DNA from: a virus
Lineage: Duplodnaviria; Heunggongvirae; Uroviricota; Caudoviricetes
IMG/VR virus record: IMGVR_UViG_2609460221_000003
Direction: 5' to 3' (one strand)
DNA length: 26,287 nucleotides
Part shown: in pieces, positions 8,580 through 13,830 of the stretch
Numbering within the stretch: the first letter of the stretch is position 1
Layout: the number at the start of each line of letters is the position of its first letter
Program-made: the position numbers and the translations under genes
The notes under the pieces: generated by a model
Told to the model about the DNA's origin: nothing
Database searches by the model: none
Seen by the model: the letters and a program-made list of their open reading frames with translations, nothing else

Positions 8580-8710
8580 TTATTTCATCAGAAATTAATT
8601 ATCACTCTGTTGTTATTCTGTACATCCCGGCAGGGTAAGTCTTGTTCTGTCGGATATGAAGATGAAATATTGTTGGAGGACAGTNGGTACCTGCTCCTGT
8701 AACCGAACGT

Positions 8711-8911
8711 TCATTTCTCGTTATTTGTCATGCTGGCCGGGCGCAGATGCGTTGCATCTGTTGCCAGCCTTCTCCTGCAGGCTTCAATAACCCACGCTGA
8801 AAAGTTACCGGACCCTTTATGCTCAAGGGCGATGTTGATCTGTTCAATCATGTGATTGGGGAAACGGATATTGCGGGTTGTGGTTCTGCGGGTACGGTTT
8901 TTCGATGACAT
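8711..8911 (-). CDS. Small ribbon-helix-helix-like DNA-binding protein (66 aa)
   Basis: Minus-strand ATG at 8911 with AAGGA 7 nt upstream; basic N-terminus followed by a strand-helix-helix pattern (RNIRFPNHMIEQINIALEHKGSGNFSAWVIEACRRRL). Divergent from the HNH gene. Confidence 0.45.
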   Translation of the reverse strand: MSSKNRTRRTTTRNIRFPNHMIEQINIALEHKGSGNFSAWVIEACRRRLATDATHLRPASMTNNEK

Positions 8912-8952
8912 ATTTATTTCCTTTACTGATTGCCATATGACGGGGATTTTAC

Positions 8953-9318
8953 ATGGCTGAGCTTCGTACACTCCAGAGCAGAATCAAAACACTGAATACC
9001 CGACGGGTGAATATTCTGAAGGGTGAACAGCGTCGTGTCAGTGGCAGTGCACGTGTTTCCCTCAAGCGTCATATCTGGCTCAGGGACGCCGGGCAGTGCC
9101 GTCTCTGTGGTCGTGTGGTTGACCTCTGTGACAGTGAACTCGATCACCGAATTGCACTTCAGTTCGGTGGTGGTAATGAGGAGACGAATCTCTGGACGCT
9201 CTGTACCGAATGCCATCGACAAAAGTCTGCTCGTGAAGCGGCGAGTGATATGCCGGACCCGACGCTGCCGGAGGTGTCCGGAGGTAGTGGCAGAGAGGAC
9301 GACATCATCGGACTGTAA
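8953..9318 (+). CDS. HNH endonuclease (terminase-associated)
   Basis: 121 aa with HNH motif CRLCGRVV...DHRIALQFGGGNEETNLWTLCTECHRQK; located just upstream of cos/terS as in HK97-type cos phages. Confidence 0.85.
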   Translation: MAELRTLQSRIKTLNTRRVNILKGEQRRVSGSARVSLKRHIWLRDAGQCRLCGRVVDLCDSELDHRIALQFGGGNEETNLWTLCTECHRQKSAREAASDMPDPTLPEVSGGSGREDDIIGL

Positions 9319-9410
9319 CCCGACCCCGGGGGGGTATCATCCGGCGTAAAAAACGATCGCTTTGGACACCGCGCCCCCTCTCACGCAGAGAAAAAATTCC
9401 CGTTTCANGG

Positions 9411-9538
9411 CAGTTAACATGTTAACTGGCTGCCCGGGCATTTTTGCGGTTTTTATCTTTATTATTCAGTTTGTTGTGCGGAAAAAATGTTAACAGGCTT
9501 TTTCAGCAAATGTTAACCAGGCAGCAGTTAACATTTGC
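9411..9538. repeat. Cluster of five TGTTAAC/GTTAACA motifs; candidate terminase-binding (cosB-like) elements
   Basis: cagTTAACATGTTAACtgg (palindromic pair, 9411-9427), aaTGTTAACagg (9487-9497), aaaTGTTAACcagg (9508-9521), cagTTAACATttg (9526-9538), in the 290-bp non-coding gap before terS. Confidence 0.4.
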
Positions 9539-9608
9539 GGCATGAGACGCCGGGAAAAATGGGCTGAACCATACCCGGCTGAGTGCGTTCTGGACCCGGG
9601 AGGAGGCT

Positions 9609-10172
9609 GTGCTGACAACGCAAAAACGAAAATTTGCGCTGGCGCTCATGTCCGGGAAAAACAAAACAGCGTCAGCCATTGCCGCCGGTTATTCGGCGAA
9701 GACCGCCAGGGTTAAAGGCTCGCAGCTGGCAAAAGATCCGGAGGTGCTTGCGTTTATAGCCCGTAAACAATGCGAGACGGTGGAGGTGGATGAGGTTCCT
9801 GTTTACCGGCAGAAAAAATCAGAGCAGGAGGATAAACCCCGTCGCCGTGAGGCGGCTGCAATACCACAGCCGGACGAAAACAATCCGGAGATGCCACCGT
9901 CCGCGGTGATGTCTCCTGGTATTGAATATATGGAGGATGGTCTTCCCGATCCGGTGAAAGCCATGGGGCGGATCCTGGTGGAAAACCTCTGCATTGATCC
10001 GAAACTGGCACTGGATGCGGCCTGGCGTCTGGCGCAGTTCACGCACCATAAAAAAGGGGATACCGGGAAAAAATCGGCAAAAGGTGATGCCGCGAAAAAA
10101 GCGGCTAACCGTTTTGCGGTGCCACCGCCACCCCGACTGGTGGTGAATAACGATAATGAGGGCAACGGATGA
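9609..10172 (+). CDS. terS: Terminase small subunit
   Basis: GTG start with strong RBS GGAGGAGG; N-terminal HTH typical of TerS (KRKFALALMSGKNKTASAIAAGYSAKTARVKGSQL); stop overlaps terL start (ATGA). Confidence 0.8.
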   Translation: MLTTQKRKFALALMSGKNKTASAIAAGYSAKTARVKGSQLAKDPEVLAFIARKQCETVEVDEVPVYRQKKSEQEDKPRRREAAAIPQPDENNPEMPPSAVMSPGIEYMEDGLPDPVKAMGRILVENLCIDPKLALDAAWRLAQFTHHKKGDTGKKSAKGDAAKKAANRFAVPPPPRLVVNNDNEGNG

Positions 10173-11830
10173 TACCTGTATGGAGCACAGCCTGCCCGGA
10201 CTGGGCAGAGCGCCTGAAAAAGGGGCTGTCGATTATTCCGGATCCGATTTATCCGGACGAGGCCGCACATGCCCTGGCGATTTTTAAACAACTGCGGATT
10301 GTGGATGCACCTGGTAGCCCTACGTTCGGGGAGTCCTGTGCACCGTGGGTGTTTGACCTGGTGGCGGCCCTGTTTGGCTCCTACGATGCGCAGACCGGTG
10401 TACGCCATATCAAGGAAGTTTTTATCCTTATCCCCAAGAAAAACTCGAAGTCCACGCTGGCCGCGGGGATCATGATGACTGCACTGTTACTGAACTGGCG
10501 GCAGGCGGCGGGTTACACGATTCTGGCCCCGACTGTGGAGGTGGCGGCCAACGCCTTCAACCCTGCCCGGGATATGGTACGACGTGACGATGATCTGGAT
10601 GACCTCTGCCAAGTACAGACCCATATCCGGACCATCACCCACCGGGTGACAGACACCACCCTGAAGGTGGTGGCAGCCGATCCGAATACGGTGTCCGGTA
10701 TCAAGTCCGTGGGTACGCTGATTGATGAGTTGTGGCTGTTTGGCAAGCAGTGCAAGGCGGAGGACATGTTACGTGAAGCCATAGGCGGCCTTGCCTCCCG
10801 CCCGGAAGGGTTTGTGGTGTATACGACCACCCAGTCGAATGAACCGCCCGCCGGGGTGTTCAGACAGAAACTGCAGTACGCCCGGGATGTGCGCGACGGC
10901 AAAATTCATGATCCGCACTTTCTGCCGGTGATATTTGAACACCCTCCTGAAATGGTGGAAAGCGGGGCTCACCTGCTGATGGAAAACCTCGCCATGGTCA
11001 ATCCTAATCTCGGCTATTCAGTGGATGAGGCCTTTCTGTACCGGGAGTACCGTAAAGCCCGGGAAGCCGGTGAAGAGACATTCCGGGGGTTCATGTCAAA
11101 ACACGCCAATGTGGAAATTGGTCTTGCCCTGCGCTCTGACCGCTGGGCGGGGGCTGATTTCTGGGAAGAGCAGGGCCGTTGTATCAGCCTGGACGATATC
11201 CTGCGTCGTGCTGATGTGGTGACGGTGGGGATTGACGGCGGAGGGCTGGATGATCTGCTGGGGATGTATGTGATTGGGCGTGACCGGGAGACCCGCGAAT
11301 GGCTGGGCTGGGGCCATGCCTGGGCGCATGAAACCGCGGTGGTCCGACGGAAGAGCGAGGCGTCCCGGTTTCAGGATCTTGTTGCCTGTGGAGATATGAC
11401 CATTGTCCGGCGTGTCGGGGATGACACGGCGGAAGTGGCGGAATATGTGCGTCGCATTCATGAGGCTGAGTTACTGGACCATATCGGTATTGACCCGTCA
11501 GGGGTGGGGCAGATTCTGGATTCACTGGCGGAAGCCGGGATCCCCGACGGAATTGTGGTGGGGATAAGCCAGGGCTGGAAACTGGGCGGGGCCATTAAAA
11601 CCACCGAGCGCAAACTGGCTGAAGGGGTGCTGGTGCATGGTGACCAGCCCCTGATGGCCTGGTGTGTCGGCAATGCCCGGGTGGAGCCTAAAGGTAACGC
11701 CATTCTTATCACCAAACAGGCCAGTGGACGGGGAAAAATTGACCCGTTGATGGCGCTGTTCAATGCGGTCTCCCTGATGTCCCTTAACCCGGAACCGAAA
11801 AAGAAAGAATATGCGGTTTTTTTCATATAA
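10169..11830 (+). CDS. terL: Terminase large subunit (ATPase/nuclease)
   Basis: 553 aa; Walker A-like ILIPKKNSKST; size and position typical of TerL. Confidence 0.9.
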   Translation: MIPVWSTACPDWAERLKKGLSIIPDPIYPDEAAHALAIFKQLRIVDAPGSPTFGESCAPWVFDLVAALFGSYDAQTGVRHIKEVFILIPKKNSKSTLAAGIMMTALLLNWRQAAGYTILAPTVEVAANAFNPARDMVRRDDDLDDLCQVQTHIRTITHRVTDTTLKVVAADPNTVSGIKSVGTLIDELWLFGKQCKAEDMLREAIGGLASRPEGFVVYTTTQSNEPPAGVFRQKLQYARDVRDGKIHDPHFLPVIFEHPPEMVESGAHLLMENLAMVNPNLGYSVDEAFLYREYRKAREAGEETFRGFMSKHANVEIGLALRSDRWAGADFWEEQGRCISLDDILRRADVVTVGIDGGGLDDLLGMYVIGRDRETREWLGWGHAWAHETAVVRRKSEASRFQDLVACGDMTIVRRVGDDTAEVAEYVRRIHEAELLDHIGIDPSGVGQILDSLAEAGIPDGIVVGISQGWKLGGAIKTTERKLAEGVLVHGDQPLMAWCVGNARVEPKGNAILITKQASGRGKIDPLMALFNAVSLMSLNPEPKKKEYAVFFI

Positions 11831-11893: not shown

Positions 11894-12883
11894 GTGACTC
11901 TTAAACGGGCCTGTTCCCTGCTGACGGTGAAATCCTTCAGTGAGGATGAACGAGTGATCACCGGGATTGCGTCAACGCCTTCTCCGGATCGGGATGGTGA
12001 CATCCTGGAGCCGGAGGGCGCGGAGTTTGGCAGTGCGATCCCGTTTCTCTGGCAGCATGACCATTCCCGCCCGGTGGGGCAGTGTACGGTGCGCCGGGTC
12101 AGCGAAGGGCTGGAAATCACGGCAACACTGGTGAAGCCCGTACCGGATATGCCGTCGCAACTGGCTGCCCGGCTGGATGAGGTCTGGGCGGCCATTAAGA
12201 CCGGGCTGGTCAGGGGGCTGTCCGTGGGCTTCCGTCCCCATGAATACACCTTTCTGGACGGAGGCGGACTGCATTTTCTGCGCTGGGAACTGATGGAGGT
12301 GTCTGCCGTCACCGTGCCCGCGAATGCGGAATGCACCATCCGGACCATTAAATCTTACGACCGCCCGTTTTCTGCCGCGTCCGGCAACCGGAAACCGGTG
12401 GTGAAAATCGCATCTTCTGCCGGCGCTGCGGCACAGTCAACAACCGTTTTTCATAAGGAAAAGACCATAATGAATATTGGCGAACAGATTAAAAGTTTTG
12501 AAAACAAGCGTGCAGCGCTGGCAGCCTCCCTTGAGGAGGTCATGACCAAAGCCGCAGAGGAAGGGCGCACGCTGGATGTGGAGGAGGAAGAGCATTACGA
12601 CAACACCGCAGCGGAAATCCGTCAGGTGGATGCGCACCTGAAGCGCCTGCGTGAACTGGAAGCCGGTAAGGCCGCCACGGCGCAGCCGGTGAAACAGGCC
12701 GGTAACGGGAATGTGGCCGCGGTGGCTTCTGCGCCGGTGATCCGTGTGGAGCAGAAACTGGATAAGGGGATTGGCTTCGCCCGCTTTGCCAAATCGCTGG
12801 CTGCGGCTAAAGGCGTCCGATCTGAAGCCTGGAAGTGGCCCGTCGTCAGTATCCGGATGACAGTCGTCTGCATCATGTCCTGA
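11894..12883 (+). CDS. HK97-family prohead protease with C-terminal scaffold-like coiled-coil region
   Basis: N-terminal about 170 aa has the prohead serine protease pattern (FLWQHDHSRPVG...GLSVGF...EVSAVTVPAN); C-terminal about 150 aa is a charged coiled-coil (delta/scaffold-like). Frame runs into the capsid ORF. Confidence 0.8.
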   Translation: MTLKRACSLLTVKSFSEDERVITGIASTPSPDRDGDILEPEGAEFGSAIPFLWQHDHSRPVGQCTVRRVSEGLEITATLVKPVPDMPSQLAARLDEVWAAIKTGLVRGLSVGFRPHEYTFLDGGGLHFLRWELMEVSAVTVPANAECTIRTIKSYDRPFSAASGNRKPVVKIASSAGAAAQSTTVFHKEKTIMNIGEQIKSFENKRAALAASLEEVMTKAAEEGRTLDVEEEEHYDNTAAEIRQVDAHLKRLRELEAGKAATAQPVKQAGNGNVAAVASAPVIRVEQKLDKGIGFARFAKSLAAAKGVRSEAWKWPVVSIRMTVVCIMS

Positions 12884-13830
12884 AATCGGCAGTGGGCGCG
12901 GGGACCACCACGGATCCGCAGTGGGCAGGCAGCCTGTCTGAATATCAGGAATACGCACAGGACTTTATTGATTACCTGCGTCCGCAGACCATTATCGGGC
13001 GATTTGGTCAGGGCGGGATCCCTGCACTTCGTCAGGTGCCGTTCAATATCCGTGTGCACGCCCAGGTGTCCGGCGGTGCTGCCGGCTGGGTGGGTGAGGG
13101 TAAGGCAAAACCCCTGACGAAGTTTGATTTTGAATCCATCACCTTCAGTCATGCGAAGGTGTCGGCCATTGCGGTACTGACGGAAGAATTGATCCGTTTT
13201 TCCAGTCCGGCTGCTGATGCACTGGTCCGTAATGCGCTGGCGGAAGCGGTGGTGGCGCGTCTGGATACAGACTTTGTGGACCCGAAAAAAGCCGCAGTGG
13301 CAGATGTCTCCCCGGCGTCCATCACCCATGATGTGAAGGGCACGGCATCAACCGGTAACCCGGATGCGGATGCAGAGGCTGCGTTTGGACAGTTTGTGGC
13401 AGCAAACCTGCAGCCCACCGGTGCGGTCTGGCTGATGTCCAGCACCAATGCCCTGGCACTGTCCATGCGTAAAAATGCGCTGGGTCAGAAGGAATACCCG
13501 GACATGACCCTGCTGGGTGGCTCCTTCCAGGGGCTGCCGGTGATTGTCTCCCAGTACGTGGGTGACCAGCTGGTGCTGGTGAATGCCCCGGATATTTATC
13601 TGGCGGATGACGGCGGCGTGGCAGTGGATATGTCCCGCGAGGCATCACTGGAAATGCAGTCTGAGCCGGGCGGCGACAGTACCACGCCGTCCCCGGTGGA
13701 GCTGGTTTCCATGTTCCAGACAGGCAGCGTGGCCATCCGTGCGGAGCGCTGGATCAACTGGCGTCGTCGCCGTACCGCGGCGGTGGCGGTGATCACCGGA
13801 GTGAACTACGGCAGTGCGTCCGGCGGCTGA
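12835..13830 (+). CDS. Major capsid protein, HK97 fold
   Basis: 331-aa ORF with HK97-like MCP character; begins in a different frame overlapping the protease/scaffold ORF by 49 nt. Confidence 0.8.
   Translation: MARRQYPDDSRLHHVLKSAVGAGTTTDPQWAGSLSEYQEYAQDFIDYLRPQTIIGRFGQGGIPALRQVPFNIRVHAQVSGGAAGWVGEGKAKPLTKFDFESITFSHAKVSAIAVLTEELIRFSSPAADALVRNALAEAVVARLDTDFVDPKKAAVADVSPASITHDVKGTASTGNPDADAEAAFGQFVAANLQPTGAVWLMSSTNALALSMRKNALGQKEYPDMTLLGGSFQGLPVIVSQYVGDQLVLVNAPDIYLADDGGVAVDMSREASLEMQSEPGGDSTTPSPVELVSMFQTGSVAIRAERWINWRRRRTAAVAVITGVNYGSASGG

Follow-up and report, generated by a model that had tools for sequence, protein, structure and literature searches.

Introduction

In phage SPP1, the oligomeric small terminase (TerS) recognises multiple sites at pacL and pacR. 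The cos site of phage lambda contains a complex cosB, arranged as R3-I1-R2-R1 between cosN and Nu1, while the cosB of N15 is simple (PMC4669245). In HK97, TerS forms the gp1 ring and recognises a single 15-bp site (+15 to +29), which is threaded through the ring (PMC11331095). For the Stx1 phage Lys8385Vzw, PhageTerm showed a cos phage with 3' cohesive ends and CGCCCCCCCT at the genome end (PMC7946995). Cohesive ends of the Acinetobacter phage fEg-Aba01 were verified by heat/cool re-annealing, and their exact position and length were obtained with PhageTerm (PMC7354433).

We analysed a stretch of viral DNA of 26,287 bp (hereafter the window), in which the region upstream of the small terminase gene had been described, in an earlier note, as a cos-like region with short repeats. 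Here we compare this region with the cos sites of related phages and satellite-like elements.

Genomic setting

The window is the late region of a lambdoid prophage, with the gene order DUF968, RusA, Q, NanS-like esterase, holin, lysozyme, Rz, TonB-like gene, DUF3950, HNH, cos and head genes. Its identity to long-tailed phages of the Stx1a, Stx2a and Stx2c types, among them BP-4795, 2851, 1717 and YYZ-2008, is 93-99%. This E. coli element belongs to the long-tailed lambdoid prophages of the Stx-phage type (BP-4795 / 2851 / Stx1a group).

The gap of 290 bp between HNH and terS claimed in the earlier note was recovered at 9319-9608, with the HNH stop codon at 9318 on the left and the TerS start codon GTG at 9609 on the right. 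Domain searches also bore out the adjacency of HNH, TerS and TerL. The HNH endonuclease gene, encoding a gp74-like packaging accessory nuclease, lies at 8953-9318 on the plus strand (PF01844, E=3.7e-8), and is found directly upstream of cos in almost all relatives. It is followed on the same strand by the genes for the small terminase TerS (Terminase_2; 9609-10172; PF03592, E=1.3e-8) and the large terminase TerL (ATPase and nuclease; 10169-11830; PF03354 and PF20441). Downstream of TerL lie genes for a protease, a capsid protein and a portal protein.

An N had been noticed at 9408 and is indeed present at that position; it is a G in 47 out of 47 distinct close relatives. In total, the window contains seven Ns (8685, 9408, 16746, 17698, 21776, 22068 and 24397). 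Furthermore, compared with all 31 relatives that span this stretch, one base is missing at ~12829, and as a result the fused prohead protease-capsid gene is divided between two frames (ORFs 11894-12883 and 12835-13830). This split could reflect either draft-quality sequence or a real frameshift. In view of the seven Ns and the protease-capsid frameshift, the prophage in the window may be non-functional. The portal ORF (14042-16627) encodes 861 aa, with the Phage_portal domain spanning residues 54-382 only and a C-terminal extension of ~480 aa. The DUF3950 gene (8711-8971, minus strand) is antisense to the late operon and overlaps the start of the HNH gene; judged by eye, its product looks like a ribbon-helix-helix DNA-binding protein. 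A tRNA scan of the window found none.

Predicted cut site and mapped ends of relatives

By homology to the mapped ends of Lys8385Vzw, Bcep176 and fEg-Aba01, we predict that cosN comprises a 10-nt 3' cohesive end, CGCGCCCCCT, at 9370-9379 (plus strand), with nicks at 9379/9380 in the top strand and at 9369/9370 in the bottom strand. The TerS of Lys8385Vzw is 95% identical to that of the window, the surrounding region is 95-99% identical, and the phage carries an identical five-site array. Its record ends with ...GGACACCGCCCCCCCT and starts with CTCACGCAGAG..., and in the alignment this break corresponds to 9379/9380 of the window, while CGCCCCCCCT aligns to 9370-9379 (CGCGCCCCCT). The break thus maps inside the gap, near the repeats, where the earlier note expected cosN.

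The linear record of Burkholderia phage Bcep176 has CGCACGTTCC at both ends, which is exactly the 10 nt before CTCACGC, at a position homologous to cosN. We found no paper describing how the Bcep176 ends were determined, and the terminal 10-nt duplication is taken at face value. In fEg-Aba01, a G-run and GGACAC lie before the 10-nt 3' end CGCCCCCCAT and CGCACGCACAAAAAAAATTCCC lies after it, in an arrangement homologous to the cosN of the window. Records of the vB_E264 type from Burkholderia were rejected as evidence on ends; they start a few nucleotides off the core and seem to be arbitrarily linearised.

The comparison with phages of similar TerS that the earlier note proposed hence placed the ends of all three phages at the homologous position. 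The note had named termini located elsewhere, or headful packaging, as evidence against its reading; the mapped ends of the relatives are cohesive and fall inside 9319-9608, in favour of a cos site. By homology to these relatives, in which the ends have been mapped, the gap at 9319-9608 is a cos site.

Conserved core of the cos site

We aligned the core of 24 lineages, using loci that encode TerS relatives at 33-50% identity, from Atlantibacter, Kluyvera, Enterobacter, Citrobacter, Serratia, Erwinia, Pantoea, Morganella, Burkholderia and Janthinobacterium. The order common to all is the HNH stop codon, a run of six to nine Gs, a spacer of ~40 nt, GGACACCGC, a variable overhang and CTCAYGCRSAGAAAAAATTCCC. 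The G-run of the window, CCCCGGGGGGG, was located at 9324-9334, within the stretch of about 9323-9335 given in the earlier note, ~35-45 nt left of the cut site. A run of G6-G9 is conserved at the matching position in relatives from Enterobacterales, Burkholderia, Janthinobacterium and Acinetobacter and in satellites, and may represent a nuclease-positioning or termination element comparable to cosQ. The left flank of cosN, GGACAC (9364-9369), is conserved in the 24-lineage alignment and in fEg-Aba01. The right flank with its A-tract, CTCACGCAGAGAAAAAATTCCC (9380-9401, plus strand; +1 to +22), is the most conserved stretch in all lineages, and probably belongs to the recognition core of the nuclease or terminase.

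The overhang itself varies across lineages while its flanks stay conserved. Between genera (L084-L109) it drifts among CGCGCCCCCT, CGCCGCCTCC, CGCTCCCCCT, CGCACGTTCC and others next to fixed flanks, and within close relatives it varies at 9373 and 9378.

A rearranged version was seen in the PPompW prophages, in which an ISEc20 element of the IS110 family (L296 1146-2604; window-equivalent ~9331) abuts the G-run. The lysis cassette and HNH gene are missing from these prophages, and the order is Q, tRNAs, IS, cos and TerS. Their cos site has probably been left without its HNH partner.

Repeats between cosN and terS

According to the earlier note, the gap carried five clustered copies of TGTTAAC in both orientations, including one perfect palindromic pair. 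Both the cluster (9413-9534) and the palindrome were found; the repeat unit had to be corrected to the 8-mer ATGTTAAC. The hexamer GTTAAC occurs at 9413, 9421, 9489, 9512 and 9527, so that five of its nine copies in the window lie within 120 bp. All five copies of ATGTTAAC in the window fall within these 122 bp, at 9413-9420 (-), 9419-9426 (+), 9487-9494 (+), 9510-9517 (+) and 9527-9534 (-) as located by sequence search. Shuffling gave an expectation of 0.51 copies per whole window, and none of 100 shuffles reached five. The first repeat lies 34 bp downstream of the predicted nick, and the array spans +34 to +155, on the terS side.

We consider these units as candidate cosB sites. Sites 1 and 2 form a perfect 18-bp palindrome, CAGTTAACATGTTAACTG (9411-9428), which contains two ATGTTAAC units in opposite orientation. 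Site 3 is a single unit (9487-9494, plus strand) within AAAAAATGTTAACA. Sites 4 and 5 form a perfect 12-bp inverted repeat, GCAAATGTTAAC-N9-GTTAACATTTGC (9506-9517 / 9527-9538), which was absent from the earlier note.

A T/A-rich spacer at 9440-9486 lies between the palindrome and site 3. It contains ATTCAGTTTGTTG (9464-9476), with one mismatch to the IHF-like pattern WATCARNNNNTTR; this is a weak match to a common pattern, with 40 such matches in the window. The arrangement ATTCA-N4-GTTR after a T-rich tract is kept in the diverged loci L165 and L166, and a similar spacer occurs in satellite L300. The spacer may be regarded as a candidate bend between sites 1/2 and 3-5. A vestigial TerS start opens a 24-codon ORF, MLTGCPGIFAVFIFIIQFVVRKKC (9419-9493), with its stop codon inside site 3. 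The counterpart of this ORF has the same length in L165 and stops after 14 codons in L166, and the ORF is probably a by-product of the T-rich spacer.

A promoter and terminator scan of 8600-10000 yielded nothing beyond shuffle expectation; its sole promoter-like match was on the minus strand and was composed of the repeats themselves. In literature searches on GTTAAC in connection with small terminases and cos, and on cosB in connection with HNH, we found no account of these repeats.

Covariation of repeats and small terminase

The N-terminus of TerS is a helix-turn-helix (HTH) of the SF6/SPP1 type, with sequence matches to PDB entries 4zc3, 2cmp and 3zqp. In the structural model, the pLDDT of residues 1-56 exceeds 92 and helices span 19-25 and 33-41, and the modelled N-domain fits 4zc3, the DNA-binding domain of SF6 TerS, with a TM score of 0.84 and an rmsd of 1.6 A. 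The best sequence match of the TerS profile to a solved structure was PDB 21di, the small terminase of Pam5 (E = 6e-4, residues 5-79), which could be a closer structural template than SF6.

Locus L165 encodes a TerS that is 65% identical to that of the window and has the same KTARV helix. It keeps the layout of the array and has a sixth unit. All 38 site positions are identical between L165 and the window, in contrast to 62-65% of the non-site positions (Fisher p ~4e-7), which argues that selection acts on the sites.

Three further loci (L166, L167 and L164), with TerS proteins 78% and 68% identical to that of the window, keep the five-site layout, but every unit reads ATGTTTAY (ATAAACATGTTTAT, ATGTTTATA and ATGTTTACA-N8-GTAAACAT). 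Hence, motif position 6 has changed from A to T in all five copies. The TerS proteins of these loci share A25E, T32S and V35C relative to the window. In the model, the helix at 33-41 and the fit to 4zc3 place residues 32 and 35 at the N-cap and first turn of recognition helix 3 of the HTH. TerL is 96% identical between the ATGTTTAY lineages and the window, which rules it out as the determinant of specificity.

Across 219 loci with the core, which represent few independent lineages and were compared irrespective of kinship, the type of repeat follows the type of TerS HTH. The link is not one-to-one: a TerS of the KSARS type occurs with a mixed GTAAAC/GTTAAC dyad, and L103 (KTARS) occurs with GTTAAC and GTTTAC. 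More distant relatives have repeats of their own. In fEg-Aba01 there are three direct repeats of AAGTTAAA, and in Bcep176 a GTTAAT..TTTAAC pair surrounds the start of TerS. In the window, fEg-Aba01 and the satellites described below, the first unit is found +32 to +34 from the nick.

From these comparisons we infer that the five ATGTTAAC units are TerS recognition sites. The suggestion of the earlier note that the repeats are candidate TerS recognition elements has thus gained strong comparative support, from the conservation of the sites, the switch of the motif and the satellites.

Satellite-like elements and alternative readers of the repeats

Integrated satellite-like elements of ~11 kb were found in E. 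coli and Salmonella (L297 3446-14881; also L168/L169, L299 and L300). They encode an integrase, small ORFs, an AAA_25 (or D5_N) primase, a TerS-like protein of 153-162 aa, a 307-aa capsid-family protein and an AIDA-type autotransporter, and no TerL, HNH or DUF3950 was found within the element. The satellite TerS cluster has 243 members. The satellites share the G-run and the cosN core with the window, and these are followed by a repeat of their own, AAAGTTACAC; L168 has two direct copies of it, L299 from Salmonella has one, and L300 has six or more. In L300, the first copy is followed by an A/T-rich spacer.

These elements bear on the question which protein reads the repeats. The site could be a cos site in which ATGTTAAC is recognised by the HNH accessory nuclease or by the antisense DUF3950 protein instead of TerS. 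The ATGTTAAC and ATGTTTAY lineages differ in HNH to the same degree as in TerS (79% versus 78% identity), such that on the phages alone HNH could be the reader, and the DUF3950 gene encodes a small DNA-binding-looking protein 400 bp away. Yet, the satellites have retained a repeat array together with a TerS of their own but encode neither HNH nor DUF3950, which favours TerS over HNH as the reader. Moreover, the array always lies directly before the TerS start or overlaps with it, the TerS substitutions that go with the switch are located in the recognition helix of the HTH, and the promoter region of DUF3950 is inside the HNH gene rather than in the repeat gap. We therefore consider recognition by HNH or DUF3950 unlikely.

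The inverted repeats might instead act as RNA hairpins in the late transcript that tune TerS translation or mRNA stability, with the cos site limited to 9324-9401. The palindrome and the 12-bp inverted repeat can pair, both arms change compensatorily in L166, and the predicted fold of 9380-9625 is slightly more stable than that of shuffled sequences, although this difference is marginal (z = -2.0). An Rfam scan of 9200-9700 gave only a sub-threshold miRNA match (E = 0.87). Several features would not be expected of hairpins: site 3 is unpaired and switches along with the other sites, fEg-Aba01 and satellite L168 have direct rather than inverted repeats at the same position, and the last repeat ends 70 nt before the Shine-Dalgarno sequence of TerS. 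We consider such a role at the RNA level highly unlikely.

The A/T-rich array with its IHF-like match could also suggest that the units are sites for a host nucleoid protein or regulator, unrelated to terminase specificity. However, the motif differs among phages and satellites of E. coli (ATGTTAAC, ATGTTTAY and AAAGTTACAC), which would be unexpected for a host factor, and we regard this explanation as the least credible.

Possible origin of the array

The TerS start of most relatives is found ~40 nt past the nick, in the sequence ...GGAGGgt[G/A]T[A/T]AAC ATG TTA ACA..., and the first site overlaps this start codon. Alignment with these short-form relatives indicates that the ATG at 9419 is homologous to their TerS start and that the palindrome (9411-9428) is the counterpart of their start-codon dyad. 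Codons 2-3 are TTA ACA in 44 of the 45 distinct short-form sequences, whereas codons 5, 7, 8, 9 and 10 vary freely among synonyms. This difference suggests a constraint at the DNA level in addition to that on the protein. Part of the conservation of TTA ACA could be explained by A/T-rich codons after the start, which are favoured for translation.

In the window, TerS starts with GTG CTG ACA, preceded by GGAGGAGG. Separate, non-coding copies of GTTAAC occur where TerS starts with ATGCTGACA, as in Pantoea L100, Morganella L102 and the window. The window lineage has ~190 extra bp (9427-9608) with three further units. Comparison of the short and long forms suggests that the array expanded from one ancestral dyad, which overlapped the start codon of TerS.

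Such an origin raises the question whether the extra copies at 9487-9534 are functional. They could be debris of a duplicated ancestral TerS 5' end, such that only the first dyad, or none, matters. This would fit the homology of the ATG at 9419 to the short-form start, the resemblance of units 3 and 4 to TerS starts of the ATGTTAACAGG type, and the fact that short-form phages manage with a single dyad. All copies are nevertheless perfectly conserved between loci whose spacers are down to 62-65% identity, all five units switched together in L166, and L165 gained a sixth. No hexamer of the five repeats varies among 75 close viral loci either (0 of 48 distinct sequences), a comparison in which overall variation is too low to be informative, with ~2 hits expected by chance. 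We conclude that it is very unlikely that the extra copies are mere debris.

Proposed mechanism and implications

Taken together, we propose that the gap is a cos site with a 10-nt 3' end and a five-unit cosB on which TerS docks, and that the array originated from an ancestral dyad. On the comparative sequence data, we assign this reading as a whole a probability of roughly 0.75. In the proposed mechanism, the terminase, aided by the HNH protein, would nick at 9369/9370 and 9379/9380 to produce the 10-nt 3' end CGCGCCCCCT. The G-run, GGACAC and CTCACGCAGAGAAAAAATTCCC would form the core recognised by TerL and HNH, common to a large family of phages and satellites. The HTH domains of a TerS oligomer would bind the five ATGTTAAC units (+34 to +155) as a multipartite cosB, which would anchor the terminase beside cosN and set the specificity of packaging. 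The T/A-rich spacer, perhaps with IHF at ATTCAGTTTGTTG, may bend the DNA such that sites 1/2 and 3-5 are bound together, as in the cosB of lambda. With TerL positioned at cosN, packaging would run rightwards into terS-terL.

More tentatively, the data may point to an HNH-dependent 3'-cos family in Enterobacterales, Burkholderia, Janthinobacterium and Acinetobacter that combines one cut-site core with a reprogrammable TerS-cosB code. In this generalisation, to which we would give somewhat less than even odds, GTTA-centred units (ATGTTAAC, ATGTTTAY, AAAGTTACAC and AAGTTAAA) would be read by an SF6-type HTH, one base change per unit would be matched by two substitutions in the recognition helix, and the ancestral site would overlap the TerS start. 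Satellites with an integrase and primase, but without TerL and HNH, would exploit the core through their private TerS and repeats. If true, this would be a satellite hijack of helper packaging distinct from the Rpp mechanism of lambda-type PICIs.

The cos nature and the end positions have already been published for the near-identical phage Lys8385Vzw, and TerS-binding repeats at a cos site are a textbook design. The arrangement described here is a variant of this cosN/cosB design and involves no new principle. For the multipartite ATGTTAAC array, its origin at the start codon, its lineage variants and the satellite version, we found no description in the literature searched. Many Stx1-, Stx2a- and Stx2c-converting phages of EHEC have this packaging module. 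Knowledge of the exact cosN and of the probable specificity sites helps to tell intact from defective Stx prophages, to orient virion genomes, and to predict cross-packaging between phages and satellites. Furthermore, ATGTTAAC versus ATGTTTAY, with T32S/V35C, offers natural specificity variants in an HTH-type TerS that works with an HNH/TerL 3'-cos nuclease, in contrast to the single threaded site of HK97.

Comparison with described packaging systems

The closest described relatives, Lys8385Vzw, fEg-Aba01 and Bcep176, share with the window the G-run, GGACAC, a 10-nt C-rich overhang, CKCACGCRSA(G/A)AAAA TTCCC and the gene order. The reports on these phages describe the ends only, and the repeats are undescribed there.

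The earlier note assigned the locus to HK97-type cos packaging. This holds for the HNH gene and for the 3' cohesive ends. As in HK97 (gp1-gp2-gp74), HNH lies beside terS-terL, TerL belongs to the same Pfam families, and the cohesive ends are 10-nt 3' ends. In terms of the HNH-dependent 3'-overhang cos class (HK97-like, sensu Kala et al. 2014), the window has HNH adjacent to terS-terL, TerL_ATPase and TerL_nuclease domains (PF03354 and PF20441), and, by homology, a 10-nt 3' end cut between HNH and terS. The assignment does not hold for TerS, which belongs to another family than HK97 gp1 (PF03592, with an SF6-type HTH), or for the core, which has no sequence similarity to the left end of HK97. 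HK97 cos proper is therefore ruled out. In contrast to the HK97 site, the candidate sites in the window start at +34 and number five.

Several features resemble lambda. In the window, several short repeats in mixed orientation, the five ATGTTAAC units at 9413-9534, lie as candidate TerS sites between cosN and terS, with an A/T-rich spacer, which may or may not bind IHF, after the first site. Packaging specificity, as judged here from the comparison of lineages, would likewise be a property of TerS-cosB, with cosN and its flanks in common. Simple one-site and complex multi-site forms occur among the relatives, as in N15 and lambda. However, lambda has a 12-nt 5' overhang, a winged-HTH TerS (gpNu1) and no HNH partner, whereas the window has a 10-nt 3' overhang, a Terminase_2 TerS with an SF6-type HTH, and an HNH partner. 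The 3' overhang and the Terminase_2 TerS rule out membership of a homologous lambda-like cos family, and since there is no sequence homology to lambda, we consider the site an analogue.

Finally, TerS itself is of the Terminase_2 type (SPP1/SF6 G1P-like), as indicated by PF03592, the PDB profile matches and the modelled fold, and its N-terminal HTH DNA-binding domain is homologous to that of SPP1/SF6 G1P. SPP1 and SF6 are headful (pac) phages, in contrast to the family of the window, which makes defined cohesive ends.
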